A stretch of 8,243 nucleotides of DNA from a virus (lineage: Duplodnaviria > Heunggongvirae > Uroviricota > Caudoviricetes). Shown one piece after another: positions 1 through 8,243 of this stretch. The position numbers were made by a program, and so were the translations under genes. Numbering within the stretch: the first letter of the stretch is position 1; every line of letters begins with the position of its first letter. The notes under the pieces are model-generated. The model made no database searches, was not told the origin of the DNA, and saw nothing but the letters and a program-made list of their open reading frames with translations. The stretch spans positions 1 to 8,243 of IMG/VR virus record IMGVR_UViG_2778261464_000003. One strand, 5' to 3'.

Positions 1-26
1 TGTTTAGTTACGAGCGACATTGCTCC

Positions 27-54
27 GTGTATTCACTCGTTGGAATGAATACAC
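27..54. other. Inverted repeat with 9-bp arms (GTGTATTCA / TGAATACAC), 10-nt loop, just beyond the stop of the 99-722 gene
   Basis: Arms at 27-35 and 46-54 are exact reverse complements. A T-rich run follows on the + strand (61-80); no clean U-tract on the - strand. Function is not determinable from sequence. Confidence 0.25.
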
Positions 55-98
55 AGTGCAGTGTTTATTCTGTTGTTAGTGCCAAAAATAAAGGCCGA

Positions 99-722
99 CT
101 ATGCGGACTCGGAAGGAAGTCCAATCATCTTATTCAAATCTTCTACCCGTAAAGCAGGAAGTGCTGTACTTGCTTTGTCTGCTTCTTTTGGTAGCAATTC
201 TTTGCTTTCAGGCCAAACTTCAATAAGTCGCTTAACTGTTGTGACTGAGTTCAAAGCAGCCCATACATTTGATTCGATATCCTTTTTCTTGGCTTCAAGT
301 TTTTGTTGCAATGCGCAGATTTCATCAAACCTTTTTGTTATTTCGTGTTCTGCATCAAACATGCATTTATCTTTGGTTGGAGTAGGGAGCAATATATCTT
401 CGCCGTTGCCGTCTTTCCCATATGAATGCCATCCAACCCTTCTGCCAGATACAGTCAGATAAATTGAAGTAGAACGAACATCGTATGAGTAAAATGAACA
501 TCCCATCTTTTCAAGTTCTTCACTTATAGCTACTAACCTGGATGATAACTGATCCACTTCCTCAGTTTTCTTTTTACCGCCAAACGCAATAACTCTGGCG
601 TCAAGTGCAAGCTGGTTCTTTAACTTTGTTACTTCTTCAAGTTCAGTGAAAACCCCAGACTTAATTAAAGCGTTACGAGCGATTTTCTCTTTCATTCTCG
701 TAGTTAAGCGGATTGATGACAT
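99..722 (-). CDS. Hypothetical early-left (pL operon) protein, 207 aa, charged with coiled-coil-like stretches, no transmembrane segment
   Basis: Long ORF on the same strand as N and immediately downstream of it. The track ORF runs 99-782, but the internal ATG at 722 (MSSIRLTTRMKEK...) is preceded by GAGAGG with 7-nt spacing, whereas the 782 start has no RBS. Stop TAG at 99-101. No family recognised by eye. Confidence 0.6.
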   Translation of the reverse strand: MSSIRLTTRMKEKIARNALIKSGVFTELEEVTKLKNQLALDARVIAFGGKKKTEEVDQLSSRLVAISEELEKMGCSFYSYDVRSTSIYLTVSGRRVGWHSYGKDGNGEDILLPTPTKDKCMFDAEHEITKRFDEICALQQKLEAKKKDIESNVWAALNSVTTVKRLIEVWPESKELLPKEADKASTALPALRVEDLNKMIGLPSESA

Positions 723-783
723 ATTAATTCCTCTCAAATAAGTGGTTTGCTGCCTAATTTTATTTTCTGGCGACCAACACAAG

Positions 784-1056
784 TCATCTTGCTGTCAGTT
801 GTTTGGATTTCCGGTATCCTGCCGCGTAAAGAGCTACGTTCGGAAGACAAGTTGAACCTTCATATTTTCTGGTCAGCGTTGTCAGTGTTATTACTTCTGC
901 TCTCATTGCTGGTTTGCGTTTGCATTGCAAGACCACTCGTGAAGGGGTTGGCCTGTGTAGTTTGTCGGAGCTAATCGCCTCCTGACTTTGCAGGTTTGCT
1001 CGACGAGCTCTACGGCGAGAAGCTGCAGTGCCTTTAAATTCTGTTTTTCTGGACAT
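784..1056 (-). CDS. N: N-like transcription antiterminator (P22 gene 24 type), 90 aa
   Basis: Arginine-rich motif near the N-terminus (GTAASRRRARRANLQ). The C-terminal sequence LPNVALYAAGYRKSKQLTAR closely resembles the P22 gp24 C-terminus as I recall it. Start ATG at 1056 is preceded by GGGAGG with 5-nt spacing; the track start at 1140 has no RBS. Sits downstream of the pL/nutL candidates. Confidence 0.7.
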   Translation of the reverse strand: MSRKTEFKGTAASRRRARRANLQSQEAISSDKLHRPTPSRVVLQCKRKPAMRAEVITLTTLTRKYEGSTCLPNVALYAAGYRKSKQLTAR

Positions 1057-1154
1057 AGATTCCTCCCGAATAAACTCTGGTGATGCAATCTCGAAGCTCC
1101 TCCTGAGACGGTTGCTTCGGCATTGCATCCCACAGCTCATGTGGTTGGGTGATC

Positions 1155-1201
1155 TGGCTTTTCAGCCACGTAGTCGAGTGTTCGACGTTGTTTAAAGAGC
1201 C
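1155..1201 (-). promoter_or_regulatory. nutL-like site: boxA (1186-1201) and boxB hairpin (1155-1168)
   Basis: The - strand reads GGCTCTTTAAACAACG (boxA-like), then a 17-nt spacer, then TGGCT-GAAA-AGCCA (5-bp stem, GAAA loop). Nearly the same arrangement recurs downstream of cro (nutR candidate), which supports both calls. Confidence 0.55.
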
Positions 1202-1246
1202 TGCCAGTCTGTTCCGTTTGGCTTCCAGCGTCCTGCTGACGGTTAA

Positions 1247-1275
1247 ATAGTACGATATGTACTTTATTGGGTCAA
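1247..1275 (-). promoter_or_regulatory. pL-like early-left promoter: -35 TTGACC, 17-bp spacer, -10 TACTAT
   Basis: On the - strand, TTGACC (plus 1270-1275) and TACTAT (plus 1247-1252) are separated by exactly 17 bp. The site is upstream of nutL and N and overlaps the operator-like palindrome. Confidence 0.5.
1249..1263. promoter_or_regulatory. OL operator candidate: 15-bp palindrome AGTACGATATGTACT
   Basis: Near-perfect dyad with half-sites AGTAC(A/G)/TGTACT overlapping the pL -10 and spacer. Related copies occur in the cI-cro intergenic region (3516-3530, 3548-3562). A weaker related copy sits at about 1274-1288. Confidence 0.45.
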
Positions 1276-1464
1276 TACGATTTGTTCTAAAATAGGGTGA
1301 TTTTTTATAACACTTTGTATTTAATAGTGTTGTTTTTTAGCGTGGGTGTATCGCCTCGGCGATGTAAGGAGAGATCAGAATTGCGTGGTTTAGTGAGTTG
1401 TATCTATTTATTTTTCAATAAATACATTTGGTTATGTGTCTTTAGGTGGGGCGTGAGGCAAAGA

Positions 1465-1495
1465 AAACCCGGCGCGGTGGCCGGGTTTATTTATT
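1465..1495 (-). terminator. Intrinsic terminator (timm-like) ending the cI-cassette leftward operon; bidirectional in form
   Basis: 9-bp stem AAACCCGGC (1465-1473) / GCCGGGTTT (1480-1488) with loop GCGGTG. A T-run follows on both strands (minus RNA: hairpin then UUUUCUUUG; plus: UUUAUUUAUU). It directly abuts the stop codon (1491-1493) of the 216-aa gene. Confidence 0.6.
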
Positions 1496-2141
1496 GCTTA
1501 GGAGCTTGTTGTGATGACGATTGGTTAGTTGGAGCGCTCGTTAATGGTTGCTGTGTCGGTACCTGTATTATAATTGGAGCCGGGCTGGTTACTGATGGTG
1601 ACTTGTCATTGCCGGAGATAATCCAACTTGAGGCTAACATCACGCCAGACAGAATCACAGTAACTAAAGTCAAGCCAACGGCCATCGCCCACTGAGTCGT
1701 TGTAAGTCCCGTTTTCAAACCGCCGATTTCACCTTTAATTTCAGCAATACCTCTCTCAATAGAAGAAAATTGCTGAGTATAATAGGTTTTAAAGTCAGCT
1801 GATTCGCGACGCATTTCCGCAGCAATAGACTCTACCTCTGATTTGTTTTGTGAAAGCTTTGCGTCAAGTTCTTCTCTGGACATTCCGCTCACGCTTACCT
1901 CCAGGGTATCACTCTTCATCGCTACATCTTCCTTACTTGGGCGCAAACCCGTTTCGTCCATGGCGTATGAAACTCTATTTGATACCTTAGCATCAATACC
2001 AATACTTTGGTACTGAGATGGATCCCCATAAGGAGAAACGGTTGTCGCTGCTAGGGTTGCACTAACTATAATACTTGGAAGAACTGATGATGTTGTTCCT
2101 GAGGTAGGTTGAACTGAAGAAACTGGCTTCAGTCTTTCCAT
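1491..2141 (-). CDS. Cassette gene 3: 216-aa predicted membrane-anchored coiled-coil protein with a Ser/Thr/Pro/Gln-rich C-terminal tail
   Basis: ORF directly followed by the terminator. N-terminal hydrophobic segment (VLPSIIVSATLAATTV), a charged central region (EELDAKLSQNKSEVESIAAEMRRESADFK...), one clear transmembrane helix (WAMAVGLTLVTVILSGVMLASSWII), then a low-complexity tail. The start at 2141 overlaps the upstream gene stop by 13 nt; a weak AGGGA RBS lies about 9 nt upstream. No family recognised. Confidence 0.6.
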   Translation of the reverse strand: MERLKPVSSVQPTSGTTSSVLPSIIVSATLAATTVSPYGDPSQYQSIGIDAKVSNRVSYAMDETGLRPSKEDVAMKSDTLEVSVSGMSREELDAKLSQNKSEVESIAAEMRRESADFKTYYTQQFSSIERGIAEIKGEIGGLKTGLTTTQWAMAVGLTLVTVILSGVMLASSWIISGNDKSPSVTSPAPIIIQVPTQQPLTSAPTNQSSSQQAPKQ

Positions 2142-2395
2142 AGCCCATTATCCCTGAGAGCTACCTGTAATGATTTTACTAATGCAACAGCTTGATCCGG
2201 GCTCATTGAGACTGACATGTTAGGGGTCAACTCAACTTTTACTTGGAAGCTATTCTTTCCTTGCTCATCAGACTGCATGTGATGCTCAAATTCATGGCGG
2301 TAAAAAGTAATGATTGTTTCAGCACGATCAGGCGTAATAAGAACTGATGTGGCGGTCATGTGCTGAGGTATGATTTTAATAGTGTTATCTGACAT
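2129..2395 (-). CDS. Cassette gene 2: 88-aa hypothetical soluble protein (the track ORF extends to 2536)
   Basis: The ATG at 2395 (MSDNTIKIIPQ...) is preceded by AAAAAGGA with about 6-nt spacing. In-frame ATGs further upstream (2431, 2437, 2536) lack an RBS. Stop at 2129-2131 overlaps the start of gene 3. The start is uncertain; the protein could be up to 135 aa. Confidence 0.5.
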   Translation of the reverse strand: MSDNTIKIIPQHMTATSVLITPDRAETIITFYRHEFEHHMQSDEQGKNSFQVKVELTPNMSVSMSPDQAVALVKSLQVALRDNGLWKD

Positions 2396-2587
2396 AAGTA
2401 TCCTTTTTGTTTCCTTAGTATTTTTTTGCATTGACATCAGAAATAGCGAATCCACAAGAGTATGAGTAAAGCTAATCAGTTTAGTGATACGGTGACTATT
2501 AAAGTGGTAAACCACATCAAAGCTCGCAGAGTGCATACCAGGCTGTCACACATGACAAAGTAACGAGGATGCCTGATCTCATAGCGC

Positions 2588-2743
2588 TCAAAGAGACATG
2601 CCGATAATGGCATTAACCACGCATGACGCCATAAACACGCCGCCAACGATGAAGCTGGCTTGGTTCTTCCTGGTAGCGCCAAGAGTCAACAGAACCACTG
2701 AAAGGGCAAAAAAAGGTATCGCGATTATGCTGAACGTGTTCAT
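2588..2743 (-). CDS. Cassette gene 1: 51-aa small membrane protein with two predicted helices (not in the supplied ORF track)
   Basis: Manual translation of the - strand gives MNTFSIIAIPFFALSVVLLTLGATRKNQASFIVGGVFMASCVVNAIIGMSL. A GAGG RBS lies about 8 nt upstream of the ATG at 2743. Starts 78 nt downstream of the cI stop with no terminator between. Two hydrophobic stretches separated by RKNQ. Confidence 0.45.
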   Translation of the reverse strand: MNTFSIIAIPFFALSVVLLTLGATRKNQASFIVGGVFMASCVVNAIIGMSL

Positions 2744-2820
2744 GTTGACCTCAACTTATTTCGATTCTCCATCACCCTTAATCCGCCGCCCCATGTGTTT
2801 GTTGTGATCCGTTGCTGGCC

Positions 2821-3480
2821 TTAACCAAACGTCTCTTCAGGCCACTGGCTGGCGATAACTTTCCCCACAACGGAACAACTCTCATTGCATGGGATCATTG
2901 GGTACTGTGGGTTTAGTGGTTGTAAAAACACCTGACCGCTATCCCTGATCAGTTTCTTGAAGGTAAACTCATCACCCCCAAGTCTGGCTATGCAGAAATC
3001 ACCTGGCTCAACAGCCTGCTCAGGGTCAACCAGAATTAACATCCCGTCAGGAAAACTAGGTTTGGATCCTGTTGGCGCGGTCATGGAATTACCTTCAACC
3101 TCAAGCCAGAATGCAGAATCACTGGCTTTTTTGGTTGTGCTTACCCATCTCTCCGCATCACCTTTGGTAAAGGTTCTGAGTTCTGGAGAGAACATCCCAG
3201 CCTGAACATGAGAAAAAACAGGGTACTCATATTGTTTTTTAACTGGGGCCGATGAGTATTCGCCAACAGGTGAAAATGTCCCGTCGTGGTTGAATGATAT
3301 GTTATCAATACCAAGGTATTTAAACACCACACCAATATCACTAAGAGATGGATGACGAGATCCGCGCAACCAGTGTCCAATCCCACCCTGCGTCATACCT
3401 AGCTCTTCGGCTAACTTCTCTTGAGTTATGCCGAGCTCTTTCATTCTGGATCTAGCCAGTTCATACCATTTCATTTTCAT
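2821..3480 (-). CDS. cI: cI-type prophage repressor: HTH N-terminal domain plus LexA/S24-like autocleaving C-terminal domain (lambda-type), 219 aa
   Basis: The C-terminal ~130 aa ([30 protein letters not shown]...GNSMT...FKKLIRD...[12 protein letters not shown]) match lambda cI residues about 100-236 as I recall them, including the Ala-Gly cleavage site and Ser/Lys dyad context. The N-terminal ~80 aa are a different HTH domain ([22 protein letters not shown]). Start at 3480 (MKMKWYEL) has AAGGA upstream; the track start at 3522 is probably an upstream extension. Confidence 0.9.
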
Positions 3481-3515
3481 GTCCTTATTATTACGCTCTG
3501 TATTGCAACCATCCA

Positions 3516-3564
3516 TGCACAATGTGTATTTTTACTTGCATTCAAAAAGTACATATTGTATTTT
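3516..3564. promoter_or_regulatory. OR/pR region: two operator-like dyads (3516-3530, 3548-3562) overlapping a pR-like promoter (-35 TTTACT 3531-3536, -10 TATTGT 3554-3559)
   Basis: TGCACAATGTGTATT and AGTACATATTGTATT fit the same pattern as the OL palindrome. The rightward -35/-10 pair has 17-bp spacing and lies about 30 nt upstream of the cro start. pRM (leftward) must lie here too but could not be pinned down. Confidence 0.5.
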
Positions 3565-3590
3565 TTCTTCATGGTTACTATGGAGGGCAT

Positions 3591-3806
3591 ATGAGCAACC
3601 TACGAAAATATCGAGAGTCACTGAATATCTCTCAAACAACACTTGCTAAGGCAGTTGGATGCACACAGGGAGCTATCGGACATTGGGAATCTGGTCGTCG
3701 CTTCCCAGACCTTAAAACATGCCGTGCTCTTGTTGCGTGTCTAAACAAGTTAGGCGCAAAAGTCAGTCTTGATGACGTGTTCCCGCCGGAACACAAAGCC
3801 GCTTAA
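3591..3806 (+). CDS. cro: Cro-like HTH repressor, 71 aa
   Basis: Divergent from cI across the operator region. GGAGGG RBS at 3582-3587. The HTH segment (ISQTTLAKAVGCTQGAIGHWESGRRFP) has a recognition helix nearly identical to the cI N-terminal domain ([15 protein letters not shown]), as expected for proteins sharing operators. The track ORF from 3522 is an upstream extension. Confidence 0.8.
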   Translation: MSNLRKYRESLNISQTTLAKAVGCTQGAIGHWESGRRFPDLKTCRALVACLNKLGAKVSLDDVFPPEHKAA

Positions 3807-3816
3807 TAAGCGGATC

Positions 3817-3862
3817 CGCTCTTTGTAACAACGGACATTCGTCCTACGTCGCTGAAAAGCGA
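3817..3862 (+). promoter_or_regulatory. nutR-like site: boxA (3817-3832, CGCTCTTTGTAACAAC) and boxB hairpin (3849-3862, TCGCT-GAAA-AGCGA)
   Basis: Same boxA core (GCTCTTT..AACAACG), about 16-17 nt spacer and 5-bp stem/GAAA-loop boxB as the nutL candidate on the other strand. Located just downstream of the cro stop. Confidence 0.55.
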
Positions 3863-3937
3863 ATCCCAGAATATCTGACCAACTAAGGCCATATGCGTTT
3901 CCACGCATACCTTTCAACTAACTATTCACTATTGGAA

Positions 3938-3970
3938 ATCTTAAGAAATGGAAAGAACAAGTTACAGCAA
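3938..3970 (-). promoter_or_regulatory. pRE-like cII-activated promoter candidate (TTGC-N6-TTGT flanking the -35, -10 TAAGAT)
   Basis: The - strand reads TTGCTGTAACTTGT (plus 3957-3970, inside the first codons of cII), then a 17-nt spacer, then TAAGAT (plus 3938-3943). This mirrors the lambda pRE layout, where the cII box overlaps the cII start. The second repeat is TTGT, not TTGC. Confidence 0.35.
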
Positions 3971-4244
3971 ACTATCACAGCGTGACGTTGATCGCGCAGA
4001 AACAGATTTACTTATCAATCTGTCAGCTATTACCCAGCGCGGTCTGGCAAAGATGATTGGCTGTCATGAATCGAAGATAAGCAGAACGGACTGGAGATTT
4101 ATTGCTTCGGTCTTGTGTGCTTTCGGAATGGCATCAGACATCAGTCCGATTAGCAGGGCTTTTAAGTATGCGCTTGATGGACTCACAAAGAAAAAATCCC
4201 CGGCCGCCACCGAGGATTTTAAGCAAATTGATATGCAATTCTGA
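3948..4244 (+). CDS. cII: cII-like transcriptional activator, 98 aa
   Basis: HTH region (GLAKMIGCHESKISR) and a C-terminus (KKKSPAATEDFKQIDMQF) closely resembling lambda cII (KKRPAATERSEQIQMEF). Positioned after cro/nutR as in lambda. Confidence 0.85.
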   Translation: MERTSYSKLSQRDVDRAETDLLINLSAITQRGLAKMIGCHESKISRTDWRFIASVLCAFGMASDISPISRAFKYALDGLTKKKSPAATEDFKQIDMQF

Positions 4245-4266
4245 GGGAATTACTGGATCAATCCAC
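4188..4266 (-). ncRNA. oop: OOP-like antisense RNA candidate (~78 nt) overlapping the 3' end of cII
   Basis: On the - strand, an extended -10 promoter TGtCATAAT (plus 4274-4282) lies about 80 nt upstream of an intrinsic terminator inside the cII 3' end (minus RNA: AAAAUCCUCGG-UGGCGG-CCGGGGAUUUU then UUCUUUG; plus 4193-4220). The terminator stem resembles the lambda oop terminator as I recall it. No good -35 found. Ends are approximate. Confidence 0.45.
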
Positions 4267-4276
4267 AGGAGTAATT

Positions 4277-4438
4277 ATGACAAAACGTCGTAAGAAATAC
4301 CAGGAAAAAGAAGAGATTCGACACCCTGATTCACCTGAGGGATTAGTGGTAGCCGCAGCAAATAACAGGGCGTTCGCAGAGCGCCTTGTTGGTGTTTACA
4401 GACTAGCCAAAGCAGGAGTGAAACATGGGCGTCGTTAA
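4277..4438 (+). CDS. Small basic ORF, 53 aa ([53 protein letters not shown]), not in the ORF track
   Basis: Good RBS AGGAG at 4267-4271 with 5-nt spacing to the ATG at 4277. Stop TAA at 4436-4438 overlaps the O start (4425). Fills a 180-nt cII-O gap that is short and non-coding in lambda. Function unknown. Confidence 0.4.
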   Translation: MTKRRKKYQEKEEIRHPDSPEGLVVAAANNRAFAERLVGVYRLAKAGVKHGRR

Positions 4439-5246
4439 GTTAGCTGATTACAGGCCTCAACTTGAGGTCGTGGAGCATCGCGTGGCAGATACCGAAGATG
4501 GTTTCATGCGCGTTGCTAACGAGATTACCGACAGTCTGCTGATGGCTGATTTAACCGTCCGGCAGTTGAAGGTGATGCTCGCTATCATGCGCAAGACATA
4601 CGGATTCAATAAGCCGATGGATCGACTCACAAACACGCAGATAGCAGCCATGACAGGTATTCATCACACTCATGTTTGCGCTGCCAAGCGCCAGCTTATC
4701 GAGCGTAAATTCCTCATTGCTGATGGCGTGAAAATCGGAGTGAACAAGGTGGTTTCGCAGTGGATTAGCCAGGACAGCTTAACATTAGCTAAAACAGCTA
4801 ATAAAACATTAGCCAAGTCGGCTAATGGGTATAAGCCAAGTCAGCTAAACACAAAAGACAATATACAAAAGACAATAAATACAAATACCCCCTTACCCCC
4901 TAACGGGGGCGGCGATGGGCAGGTTAAACCTGAACGTCGCAAGGCAGAACGAATCGACTACGAATCCTTCCTGAACGCCTACAACACCGAAGTCGGTGAC
5001 AGACTGCCACACGCTGTTGCGGTCAACGAGAAACGCAAACGCCGCCTGAAGAAAATCATCCCGCAACTGAAAACGCCAAACGTGGACGGTTTCAGAGCGT
5101 ATGTCAGGGCGTTTGTGCATCAGGCCAAGCCGTTTTACTTCGGAGACAACGACACGGGCTGGACAGCTGATTTTGATTACCTGCTGAGGGAAGATTCGTT
5201 AACGGGAGTACGGGAAGGGAAGTTTGCAGACAGGGGGATTGCATGA
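4425..5246 (+). CDS. O: Replication initiator, lambda O / P22 gene 18 family, 273 aa
   Basis: The N-terminal domain ([15 protein letters not shown]...[38 protein letters not shown]) closely matches the lambda O N-terminal domain as recalled (NVADLDDGYARLSN...ADLTKRQFKVLLAILRKTYGWNKPMDRITDSQLSEIT). RBS AGGAGTG upstream; internal iterons and AT-rich region; stop overlaps the helicase start. Confidence 0.9.
4764..4890. repeat. Origin-like region inside O: four ~18-25-bp iterons (4764-4850) followed by an AT-rich stretch (4851-4890)
   Basis: Direct repeats with the core TTAGC(C/T)A..(G/A)(T/A)C.GCT(A/T)A: ATTAGCCAGGACAGCTTAAC, ATTAGCTAAAACAGCTAAT, ATTAGCCAAGTCGGCTAAT, AAGCCAAGTCAGCTAAAC, each internally dyad-symmetric. 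Then ACAAAAGACAATATACAAAAGACAATAAATACAAATA and a GC hairpin CCCCC-TAAC-GGGGG (4896-4909). Same layout as ori-lambda within the O linker. Confidence 0.6.
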
Positions 5247-6619
5247 GACAGGATATCGAAGCGAGCGTTATCGGTGGCCTGCTGATTGGTGGATTAACAC
5301 CAACCGCCAGCGACGTTCTGGCAACGCTGGAGCCGGAAGCGTTTTCAATTCCGCTCTACCGGAAAGCCTTCGAGGTTATCCGCAAGCAGGCGAGAAACAG
5401 AAACCTAATCGATGCGCTGATGGTTGCCGAGGCGTGCGGAGAGGAGCATTTCACGTCAATCCTGATGACCAGCAAAAACTGCCCGAGTGCCACAAACCTG
5501 AAGGGATATGCCGGAATGGTCGCGGATAACTATCACCGCCGTCTGGTGCTGGAAATCATGGATGAAATGCGTGAACCAATTCAGAGCGGAACCATCGACG
5601 CATCGAGTCAGGCGATGGATGAGCTTGTAAAGCGTCTTTCAGCCATCAGAAAGCCCCGTGACGAGGTTAAACCTGTACGGTTAGGGGAAATCATTACTGA
5701 CTACACTGACACGCTTGACAGGCGTCTGAGGAACGGAGAAGAGTCCGATACCCTGAAGACCGGAATCGAAGAACTTGATGCCATCACCGGAGGGATGAAC
5801 GCGGAAGACCTGGTGATAATCGCTGCTCGTCCTGGTATGGGGAAAACCGAACTGGCGCTGAAGATTGCCGAAGGCGTTGCAAGCCGCGTTATTCCTGGTT
5901 CTGACGTCCGGCGCGGGGTATTGATTTTCTCAATGGAAATGAGCGCATTGCAGATTGCAGAGCGAAGCATTGCCAACGCCGGGAGGATGTCGGTTAGTGT
6001 GCTGCGAAATCCTGCAGCGATGGATGACGAAGGCTGGGCGCGCGTTGCTAACGGCATGAGTCAGCTTGCAGATTTGGATGTATGGGTAGTCGATGCCTCG
6101 CGGTTATCGGTCGAAGAAATACGCTCAATCGCAGAACGGCACAAACAGGAAAATCCAAACCTCTCACTCATCATGGTGGATTATCTTGGCCTGATTGAGA
6201 AGCCGAAAGCAGACCGCAACGACCTCGCAATTGCTCACATCTCCGGAAGCCTGAAGGCGATGGCGAAAGACCTGAAAACGCCCGTTATCTCCCTGAGTCA
6301 GCTTTCGCGCGATGTTGAGAAGCGACCAAACAAACGCCCGACAAACGCAGATTTGCGTGATTCAGGAAGCATTGAACAGGACGCAGACTCAATCATCATG
6401 CTCTATCGGGAAGCGGTATATGACGAGAACAGTAGCGCCGCGCCATTTGCTGAAATCATCGTAACGAAAAACCGTTTTGGCTCGCTTGGTACGGTTTACC
6501 AGCGGTTCTGCAACGGACACTTTGTTGCATGTGACCAGGATGAAGCCAGACAGATTTGCACAACATCAAATGCACCTGCTGCACGTGGCAGACGATATGC
6601 ACAAGGGGCTGACGTATGA
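5243..6619 (+). CDS. DnaB-family replicative helicase (P22 gene 12 type), 458 aa
   Basis: Walker [10 protein letters not shown], DnaB-like motifs [45 protein letters not shown] overlap with the O stop. The length equals what I recall for P22 gp12. Confidence 0.9.
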
Positions 6620-6644
6620 CCATCTACATCACTGAGCTTGTAAC

Positions 6645-6676
6645 AGGCCTGCTGGTAATCGCAGGCCTTTTTATTT
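6645..6676 (+). terminator. Intrinsic terminator (tR2-like) between the helicase and ninB
   Basis: Perfect 8-bp stem AGGCCTGC (6645-6652) / GCAGGCCT (6661-6668), 8-nt loop, followed by TTTTATTT (6669-6676). Confidence 0.6.
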
Positions 6677-6692
6677 GGGGGAGAGGGAAGTC

Positions 6693-7133
6693 ATGAAAAA
6701 ACTAACCTTTGAAATTCGATCTCCAGCACATCAGCAAAACGCTATTCACGCGGTACAGCAAATTCTTCCAGACCCAACCAAACCAATCGTAGTAACCATT
6801 CAGGAGCGCAACCGCAGCTTAGACCAAAATCGGAAGCTTTGGGCTTGCCTTGGTGACGTTTCGCGTCAGGTTGAATGGCATGGTCGCTGGCTGGATGCAG
6901 AAAGCTGGAAGTGTGTGTTTACCGCAGCATTAAAGCAGCAGGACGTTGTTCCTAACCTTGCCGGGAATGGCTTTGTGGTAATAGGCCAGTCAACCAGCAG
7001 GATGCGTGTAAGCGAATTTGCGGAGCTATTAGAGCTTATACAGGCATTCGGTACAGAGCGTGGCGTTAAGTGGTCAGACGAAGCGCGACTAGCTCTCGAA
7101 TGGAAAGCGCGATGGGGAGATCGGGCTGCATGA
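6693..7133 (+). CDS. ninB: NinB (Orf-family recombination protein), 146 aa
   Basis: The protein from MKKLTFEIRSPAHQQNAIHAVQQILPDPTKPIVVTIQERNRSLDQNRKLWACLGD... matches lambda NinB almost residue for residue as recalled. RBS GGGAGAGGGAAG upstream of the ATG at 6693; the track start at 6675 is an extension. Confidence 0.9.
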   Translation: MKKLTFEIRSPAHQQNAIHAVQQILPDPTKPIVVTIQERNRSLDQNRKLWACLGDVSRQVEWHGRWLDAESWKCVFTAALKQQDVVPNLAGNGFVVIGQSTSRMRVSEFAELLELIQAFGTERGVKWSDEARLALEWKARWGDRAA

Positions 7134-7657
7134 CTATCAAATCAAATACGGCAGCACACGACAAGGACTGCTGGCAAACGCCGCTTTGGCTTTTTGATGC
7201 ACTGGATATTGAGTTTGGATTCTGGCTGGATTCGGCAGCGAGCGACAAAAATGCTCTGTGCGCTCACTGGCTAACTGAGGCCGACGACGCACTCAATTCT
7301 GAGTGGATAAGCCACGGTGCAATCTGGAATAACCCACCGTACAGCAATATCAGGCCGTGGGTGGAAAAAGCCGCTGAGCAGTGCATACAACAGCGACAGA
7401 CGGTAGTTATGCTTGTGCCAGAGGATATGTCAGTCGGATGGTTCAGCAAGGCTCTGGAGAGTGTCGACGAAGTTCGCATTATCACTGATGGACGGATTAA
7501 TTTTATCGAACCATCGACAGGGCTGGAGAAGAAGGGAAACAGCAAAGGCTCCATGCTGCTGATTTGGCGACCGTTCATCAGTCCTCGACGGATGTTTACT
7601 ACCGTATCCAAAGCGGCATTGATGGCGATCGGGCAGGGCGTCAGGAGGGCGGCATGA
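7130..7657 (+). CDS. Phage Dam-type DNA N6-adenine methyltransferase, 175 aa
   Basis: Start MTIKSNT at 7130 (ATGA overlap with the ninB stop). Motifs [25 protein letters not shown] and IWNNPPYS (NPPY catalytic motif) are typical of the small phage Dam family. The track start at 7070 is an in-frame extension inside ninB. Confidence 0.75.
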
Positions 7658-7830
7658 GGCGACAGCGACGAAGTTTCACCGACATCATCTGCGAAAACTG
7701 CAAATACCTTCCAACGAAACGCTCCAGAAATAAACGCAAGCCAATCCCAAAAGAATCTGACGTAAAAACCTTCAATTACACAGCTCACCTGTGGGATATC
7801 CGGTGGCTAAGATATCGTGCGAGGAAATGA
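7654..7830 (+). CDS. ninE: NinE-family protein, 58 aa
   Basis: [58 protein letters not shown] matches lambda/P22 NinE as recalled. RBS AGGAGGG at 7643-7649; ATGA overlap with the methyltransferase stop. The track start at 7564 is an extension. Confidence 0.75.
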
Positions 7831-8174
7831 CAATGGATTATTCACAGTTAAGTGATTTTGAAATTAACAGAATGGTAGGAGACATAATTTTTAAAGGCCT
7901 TTGGGCAAGTAAACCGGAAACATCAGGGAATAACACCAACAAATGGTATTACGGAAATGCTGATACAACTTTTGAGCCATTAAATCATTTTCCTGACTAC
8001 TGCAATGATCCGAGCGCTTCATGGCCGATTATTGAGAAATACAGGATTTCTATCTTAGACCAGTTAACTGAATGGTGTGTGGATGCAAAAGGCGTAAGCC
8101 CAATATTTGATACCAGACCTCTCCGCGCCGCCATGATTGTCTTTCTCCTGATGCAGGAGGCCAATAATGCTTAG
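7827..8174 (+). CDS. nin-region hypothetical protein (possibly NinX-like), about 115 aa
   Basis: ORF in the nin gene array between ninE and ninF. Start is either ATG 7827 (ATGA overlap with the ninE stop, like every other junction here) or ATG 7833 (better spacing from GAGGAA at 7821-7826). The NinX assignment is by position only. Confidence 0.6.
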
Positions 8175-8243
8175 CCCATCCCAAACCCTTCAATACCAGA
8201 AAGAAAGCGTCGAGCGAGCTTTAACGTGCGCTAACTGCGGTCA
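8167..8243 (+). CDS. ninF: NinF, N-terminal fragment (continues past the window end)
   Basis: [25 protein letters not shown] matches the lambda NinF N-terminus as recalled. RBS AGGAGG at 8155-8160. The ORF is still open at 8243. Confidence 0.75.

Follow-up and report, generated by a model that had tools for sequence, protein, structure and literature searches.

The lambda region between N and cIII is occupied by ral, sieB, and ea10, and Pfam includes models for Ral and SieB. In the lambdoid locus described here, the gene that follows N encodes a protein of the Nmad5 family, a name that stands for 'nucleotide modification associated domain 5'. The Nmad families were reportedly defined in a 2013 paper. 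In the literature found, neither a biochemical activity of Nmad5 proteins nor a study of this lambdoid Nmad5 gene is reported.

Nmad5 genes of the M6/Yuavirus type are located near those for 5-hmdU DNA kinase, pyrophosphorylase-type enzymes, and pyrimidine hydroxymethylase (PMC9476957). In Dhillonvirus, mutants that escape the Tmn defense carry the nmad5 substitution K216E or K296E; reverting the nmad5 change restores Tmn sensitivity, whereas deletion of nmad5 gives no escape, and the gene was not clonable, apparently through toxicity (PMC11846954). It was also reported in a 2026 preprint that T2 RIIB, described as an early replisome-associated protein, directly activates Tmn (PMC13001434).

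The locus analyzed here is a stretch of 8,243 nucleotides from a virus of the Caudoviricetes (IMG/VR record IMGVR_UViG_2778261464_000003, positions 1 to 8,243), hereafter the window. Its Nmad5 protein has the same length (approximately 200 aa), motifs, and predicted fold as the family represented by PF18757 and PHROG 1965, but its gene lies in a lambdoid pL operon, where the base-modification neighborhood behind the family name is absent. The Dhillonvirus proteins (SM_A8, SMS22) belong to the same Pfam family (E 2.8e-55), with 33% identity over window residues 103-203; that of SM_A8 is longer (254 aa), and its gene is found on the opposite strand, in the head-gene module of a lytic phage. The Yuavirus/M6-group proteins (PAE1 Orf51 and SN1_019) are also members (E 7e-51), although tblastn aligns window residues 121-207 only and their locus is near modification enzymes. 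The lambda genes ral, sieB, and ea10 share with the window gene its operon position and its optional, swappable character, whereas no sequence-family relation between their products and the window protein was detected in a Pfam scan at E <= 1. This agrees with an earlier sequence-only reading of the locus, which had matched the protein to none of the three. Restriction alleviation by Ral and exclusion by SieB are functions without support for the window gene.

The Nmad5 Gene and Its Operon

The features of the operon are listed below in window coordinates.

99 to 722, minus strand: Nmad5-family coding sequence for a stand-alone protein of 207 aa (PF18757), identified by ORF calling, Pfam, and PHROG
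729 to 735, minus strand: Shine-Dalgarno-like GAGAGGA, 6 nt 5' of the ATG at 722, read from the sequence
723 to 783, minus strand: spacer of 61 nt from the N stop to the Nmad5 start, with no terminator (terminator scan and RNA folding)
784 to 1056, minus strand: antiterminator N gene of 90 aa, the upstream gene in the operon (Pfam N_peptide, E 3.4e-32; PHROG 271)
1156 to 1200, minus strand: nutL-like site with boxA GCTCTTTAA at 1192-1200 and a boxB hairpin GGCTGAAAAGCC at 1156-1167, found by pattern match
1247 to 1275, minus strand: pL-like sigma-70 promoter, TTGACC-17 nt-TACTAT (scan, 9 of 12 matches), as a consensus match only
25 to 56, minus strand: 14-bp hairpin with no U-run, 43 nt 3' of the Nmad5 stop, found by RNA folding

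The 207-aa ORF runs on the minus strand from an ATG at 722 to a TAG at 101-99, and of 82 related loci (viral contigs and phage records), 80 preserve this frame. A TTG-started version of 227 aa (99 to 782) is unlikely and was rejected because homologues begin with MSS or MTS and the same 80 loci share the ATG frame. Among 64 distinct alleles from 83 copies, variation is greatest at third codon positions and dN/dS is approximately 0.24-0.29, from which it follows that this is a real coding gene under purifying selection. An antisense ORF of 133 aa (61-462, plus strand) within the conserved gene is treated as spurious. The protein has a mass of 23.2 kDa, a net charge of +1, and a pI of 7.65; 31% of its residues are charged, and no hydrophobic segment was found (best 19-residue Kyte-Doolittle mean 0.6). 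The sequence-only reading, in which the product was called highly charged and free of membrane segments, is therefore correct on both points. It was also right that the gene follows N in the pL operon with a strong ribosome-binding site and no intervening terminator, as seen from the ORF, the GAGAGGA motif, and the terminator scan.

A minus-strand scan of the 61-nt spacer gave no terminator-like site, and the spacer folds at the level of shuffled sequence (RNA fold z 0.01). For the upstream gene, PHROG 271 is annotated as anti-termination protein N-like, and the start at 1056 agrees with the Pfam N_peptide match and with homologues; the N frame is also open 5' to an ATG at 1140 (784-1140, minus strand; 118 aa). 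The boxA and boxB patterns have one match each in the window, the boxB pattern occurs in 0 of 200 shuffles, and both elements agree with the lambdoid consensus. As judged from its sequence, the predicted pL-like promoter would drive both N and the Nmad5 gene, for which a promoter scan detected no promoter of its own. Downstream of Nmad5, the hairpin region (window 1-110, minus strand) folds at -32.1 kcal/mol (z -3.9), and none of 200 shuffles folds as well. Cross-phage similarity continues through the hairpin to window position 1, so the hairpin is part of the conserved cassette; it may mark where the transcript is processed, or where it ends by Rho-dependent or other means.

Elsewhere in the window, three minus-strand ORFs at 1491-2141 (216 aa), 2129-2536 (135 aa), and 2588-2743 (51 aa) are located between the cI-like repressor gene and pL/nutL, which is the position of rexAB in lambda. 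None has a match in Pfam, and PADLOC gives none that is meaningful. A hydrophobic segment is present at the C-terminus of the 216-aa product, and the 51-aa product appears to be embedded in the membrane; these ORFs are candidates for prophage-expressed exclusion or defense genes.

Family Membership and Distribution

The sequence-only reading had described the protein as unrecognized, which does not hold. Its match to PF18757 scores 243.2 bits (cut-off 27; E 3.7e-72) and extends from end to end, with residues 4-203 on profile positions 1-206 of 206. The protein is thus almost certainly a member of the Nmad5 family. It also matches PHROG 1965 (E 1e-83), a family of unknown function, and identical copies are named 'Nmad5 family putative nucleotide modification protein' by PGAP/RefSeq (e.g., WP_021518644.1). 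Therefore, the protein is already catalogued and named, and it is no new kind of element.

Other searches gave few further leads. In the Pfam scan at E <= 1, only weak sub-threshold matches of a coiled-coil type, to YfjL_C, P4Ha_N, Matrilin_ccoil, and SKA2 were present beside Nmad5, and the YfjL_C match (18 bits against a cut-off of 28) was dismissed as helical-composition noise. No family matching the protein was found in NCBIfam or in PADLOC-DB 2.0 (the latter at E <= 1), and neither the single protein nor a 52-sequence profile matched a PDB sequence below E 0.2.

Copies of the gene with 93-100% nucleotide identity are present in 211 of 5426 complete E. coli genomes in RefSeq (approximately 4%), and all 28 full-length E. 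coli copies among the matches listed carry the Nmad5 annotation. Homologues with 41-96% identity occur in prophages of Cronobacter, Klebsiella, Enterobacter, Pantoea, Erwinia, Providencia, and Serratia. A scan of species-representative genomes with close alignment gave 4 loci only, and a profile search of 1.84 billion cluster representatives (50% identity clusters) yielded 2,272 clusters at E <= 1e-3. Stand-alone proteins of approximately 190-220 aa make up nearly all of the 150 clusters listed among these 2,272. In the distant-profile search, domain fusions were absent from the 120 matches listed, all of which are single-domain proteins of about 200 aa.

A Mobile, Optional Cassette between N and cIII

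One Nmad5 cassette is found behind three different N contexts. In mEp235, whose Nmad5 protein is 99.5% identical to that of the window, nun is located between N and Nmad5, which indicates that insertions are tolerated at this junction; the nun gene, for the HK022-type transcription termination factor, occupies 6859-7197 of the locus examined. The gene is also present in HK542, in Stx1a phages, and in PhiR12 phages, and a copy that is 100% identical in nucleotides is found in an E. coli prophage whose repressor is of the P22 C2 type. Similarity to other phages ends at window position 786 (the N stop) or at 849, and the 61-nt spacer therefore moves with the Nmad5 cassette.

In more distant prophages, the gene is likewise part of the leftward early operon. 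A Dryocola prophage has it after an arginine-rich N-like ORF, and a Providencia prophage has it before a large nuclease-like ORF. Enterobacterial prophages carry it 5' of cIII, kil, and the recombination genes.

The slot can be filled by other genes. A sister prophage in E. coli NZ_OY754364, whose immunity region, rex-position ORFs, and N are the same as those of the window, carries a hypothetical ORF of 83 aa and a gene for a DUF2528 protein in the Nmad5 slot (2550-3352 of the locus). DUF2528 is presumably the family of lambda Ea10. In the Stx2a phage LC616047 (1589-3525), Nmad5 is split after codon 35 by an IS3-family element of approximately 1.3 kb that has IS629-type ends and a 3-bp duplication, GAA, on either side. 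The same truncated, two-place Nmad5 match is seen in about 48 other Stx2a records, and the disruption reads as one inherited insertion. This split and the other genes in the sister prophage slot show that the Nmad5 gene is dispensable. The cassette is mobile, and the N-cIII region is a swap site for accessory genes.

These observations agree with the accessory slot after N that the sequence-only reading had proposed, given the three N contexts and the replacement in the sister prophage. That reading had also raised the possibility of a disrupted frame in closely related prophages. Such disruption occurs in the IS629-split gene of the Stx2a phage, whereas the frame is intact in nearly all of the viral-contig and phage-record loci (80 of 82).

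Conserved Residues and Predicted Structure

An AlphaFold2 model built from a 23-sequence alignment is confident (mean pLDDT 86, pTM 0.70). Its N-terminal part comprises a short strand, helices at 8-22, 24-47, and 50-72, and a beta-hairpin at 86-100; the C-terminal part comprises a long helix (127-158), a set of three short helices with the WPE motif (163-182), and a final short helix (193-199). The linker at 184-191, after which the C-terminal motif comes, is of low confidence (pLDDT below 50). The heptad-like stretches noted in the sequence-only reading fit three long model helices (24-47, 50-72, and 127-158).

No fold match to any solved structure was obtained for the model. A Foldseek search of BFVD returned Nmad5-named proteins, the homologue in phage eiAU that tblastn had also detected, and unnamed phage proteins, with E values down to 1e-12 and TM-scores up to 0.75. 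On the basis of the models, the fold is predicted to be common to other Nmad5 family members, and it is a confident prediction with no solved relative. Profile and structure-based homology search, which had been proposed as a check on the sequence-only reading, placed the protein in the Nmad5 family and gave no solved-structure or characterized relative; since the family is named but uncharacterized, no mundane function of a characterized protein was recovered.

Conservation was computed over 145 members with a median identity of 30%. The conserved positions are R5, L6, I14, A18, G23, R43, G48, G49, G93, V153, T162, L166, W170, P171, E172, E175, L176, P178, L188, P189, L196, N197, G201, L202, and P203. 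Conservation is 0.8-1.0 for R5, R43, GG48-49, G93, T162, L166, WPE170-172, E175, L176, P178, and the LP...LNxxIGLP motif. Most conserved positions are turn or hydrophobic/core positions, and His, Asp, and Cys are absent from them among the 145 members. The motif LPA[VIL]x[VT]xDLNx[LM]IGLP is present in 117 of the 145, usually 1-7 residues from the C-terminus, and the window protein carries every family-wide conserved residue and motif, including WPExxELxP and LNxxIGLP. The Dhillonvirus residue K216 of SM_A8 aligns with window R165, a residue of the most conserved block (T162-x-K-R-L166...WPE), where T162 and L166 lie on either side of it.

Judged from the alignment, this pattern looks more like that of a binding protein with a docking peptide than that of an enzyme. 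An active site could be formed from E172, E175, R5, R43, and N197, despite the lack of conserved His, Asp, or Cys. The C-terminal peptide loosely resembles the clamp-binding motifs QLxLxL or QxxLxP. A clamp-binding reading was set aside because the second motif position is variable and because, to our knowledge, phage A-family polymerases work without a sliding clamp.

Gene Neighborhoods of Distant Relatives

The contexts of Nmad5 genes in other phages are as follows.

N4-like Salmonella phage UTK0002: genes for DNA polymerase, ThyX, Nmad5, a PD-(D/E)XK nuclease, and primase
Metagenomic phage contigs: Nmad5 beside an Rv2179c-like 3'-5' exonuclease, a dNMP kinase, or DNA polymerase A
Vibrio phage Athena1: Nmad5 directly 5' of replication protein O, with RecT and an exonuclease nearby
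Yuavirus PAE1 and M6-like phage SN1: Nmad5 in a thymidine hypermodification cassette, near 5-hmdU DNA kinase
Dhillonvirus and some metagenomic phages: Nmad5 among small accessory ORFs within head or terminase modules

The commonest theme, by gene content, is DNA replication, recombination, and nucleotide metabolism, and it is not universal; several of the metagenomic contexts probably come from related phages and hence do not count as independent observations. The accessory-ORF contexts would suit a host-interaction or counter-defense gene as well as a replication factor. In Yuavirus PAE1, an HNH endonuclease gene lies between Nmad5 and the gene for 5-hmdU DNA kinase, which is two genes away. 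This base-modification neighborhood is a contextual feature rather than a criterion for membership in the profile. Genes for 5-hmdU DNA kinase, aGPT-pyrophosphorylase, and pyrimidine hydroxymethylase were found neither in the window, nor in the mEp235 genome, nor in the prophage region with the identical gene. The existence of lambdoid carriers without hypermodification genes means that the family name describes the neighborhood of one lineage and not a demonstrated activity.

Several other genes were observed in these surroundings. ORFs of approximately 100 aa with weak or faint CsrA-family matches adjoin Nmad5 or lie near it in three metagenomic phage contigs (L093, 4404-4709; L098, 6602-6901; L099, 5221-5514), and genes for DUF7740 and Rv2179c-like exonuclease proteins recur near Nmad5 in contigs L092, L093, L094, and L096. 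The contigs bearing CsrA-like or DUF7740 genes may be related phages rather than independent cases. In the window itself, a phage Dam-type N6-adenine methyltransferase is encoded in the nin region (7070-7657, plus strand; Pfam Dam E 4e-64), overlapping the end of ninB. Neither mEp235 nor the identical-gene prophage has Dam alongside Nmad5.

Possible Functions of the Lambdoid Nmad5 Protein

The reading preferred here, which is put forward tentatively as a possible rather than a probable account, is that Nmad5 may be an early accessory protein with no catalytic activity that affects the replication or recombination of phage DNA, or else a host factor encountering these processes. Expression would begin early, from pL with N antitermination, once a cell is infected or the prophage is induced, and the product would work by binding or as an adaptor. 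If the target is a host factor, it would be a conserved one that comes into contact with phage DNA during replication. In either case, contact would be made via the invariant WPExxELxP segment and the C-terminal LNxxIGLP peptide. From the evidence given above we infer that catalysis is absent, that the protein is linked to DNA metabolism, and that the C-terminal peptide has this role. By analogy, the activation of Tmn by RIIB would fit an early Nmad5 protein that works near the replication machinery and is visible to host immunity, and it would fit equally a binding protein that a single change has converted to a Tmn blocker.

Several of the same observations bear on a counter-defense role, in which Nmad5 would bind and neutralize an immune or nuclease component of the host at an early stage of infection, much like Ral, whose gene has the corresponding position in lambda. 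Such a role is suited by the swappable N-cIII slot, filled in the sister prophage by the 83-aa ORF and the DUF2528 protein and in lambda by genes that include ral and sieB, and also by the sporadic occurrence of the gene in E. coli, its dispensability, and its place among small accessory ORFs in several phages. The family also lacks a catalytic signature, and the escape of Dhillonvirus from Tmn by missense changes and not by deletion resembles gained inhibition in a binding protein. However, that protein is only 33% identical to the window protein, over the C-terminal half, and many homologues lie in replication operons of lytic phages and not in accessory islands. Pfam, NCBIfam, and PADLOC give no family but Nmad5, and since the model matches no solved structure, it matches no known inhibitor either. 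Anti-restriction, exclusion, or host takeover, the functions suggested for this gene in the sequence-only reading, thus found no counterpart in PADLOC, NCBIfam, or fold searches, and counter-defense is rated here as doubtful, though it is the main rival of the preferred account.

An early inhibitor of host growth or division, comparable in role to Kil, would account for the reported failure to clone the Dhillonvirus homologue, apparently through toxicity (PMC11846954), and Nmad5 does share its operon with kil and cIII. Yet the toxicity is reported, without characterization, only for a distant and longer homologue, overexpressed DNA- or replisome-binding proteins are commonly toxic, and the carrier phages already encode Kil; such a toxin is therefore regarded as improbable. 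Involvement in base modification is equally hard to credit, whether as an enzyme or as an accessory subunit that may guide a modifying activity to newly replicated DNA or scaffold it there. The M6/Yuavirus-type gene lies in a thymidine hypermodification cassette (PMC9476957), and the window encodes the phage Dam at 7070-7657. On the other hand, Dam is missing from mEp235 and from the identical-gene prophage, and no hypermodification gene is annotated in the complete mEp235 genome or in that prophage region. Most of the approximately 2,270 clusters are stand-alone, the sampled contexts come from varied phage types, and the conserved residues are not of a catalytic type. Despite its family name, Nmad5 is in our view not a base-modifying enzyme. 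An exclusion or defense gene that protects the lysogen is highly improbable. SieB is encoded in the corresponding lambda region. However, pL, nutL, and N all precede Nmad5, for which no separate promoter was detected, and the gene should therefore be silent in a repressed lysogen; PADLOC gives no match, and many homologues occur in strictly lytic phages. A 'nucleotide modification associated domain', unspecified, is listed among predicted defense domains in a 2026 paper (PMC13092281), which favors such protection.

The preferred account of a non-catalytic early accessory protein may be extended to the family, a step that we consider unlikely to be right in full. Nmad5 proteins would then form a new fold class of widespread non-enzymatic early proteins, whose invariant LNxxIGLP peptide docks on a conserved host or replisome component. 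They would serve as counter-defense or takeover factors and at the same time be watched by host immunity, of which Tmn is an example, and their label would be a misnomer taken from one lineage.

Implications for the Nmad5 Family

Nmad5 is a large family (approximately 2,270 clusters at 50% identity) with a confidently predicted fold and no solved relative. Lambdoid phages carry Nmad5 without any hypermodification genes, and the family name is therefore probably misleading for most members. Both mEp235 and HK542 are easily handled K-12 phages with an intact copy in a well-understood operon, which makes them a convenient system for Nmad5 function, and they could also show why a change at the equivalent of R165 defeats Tmn in Dhillonvirus.
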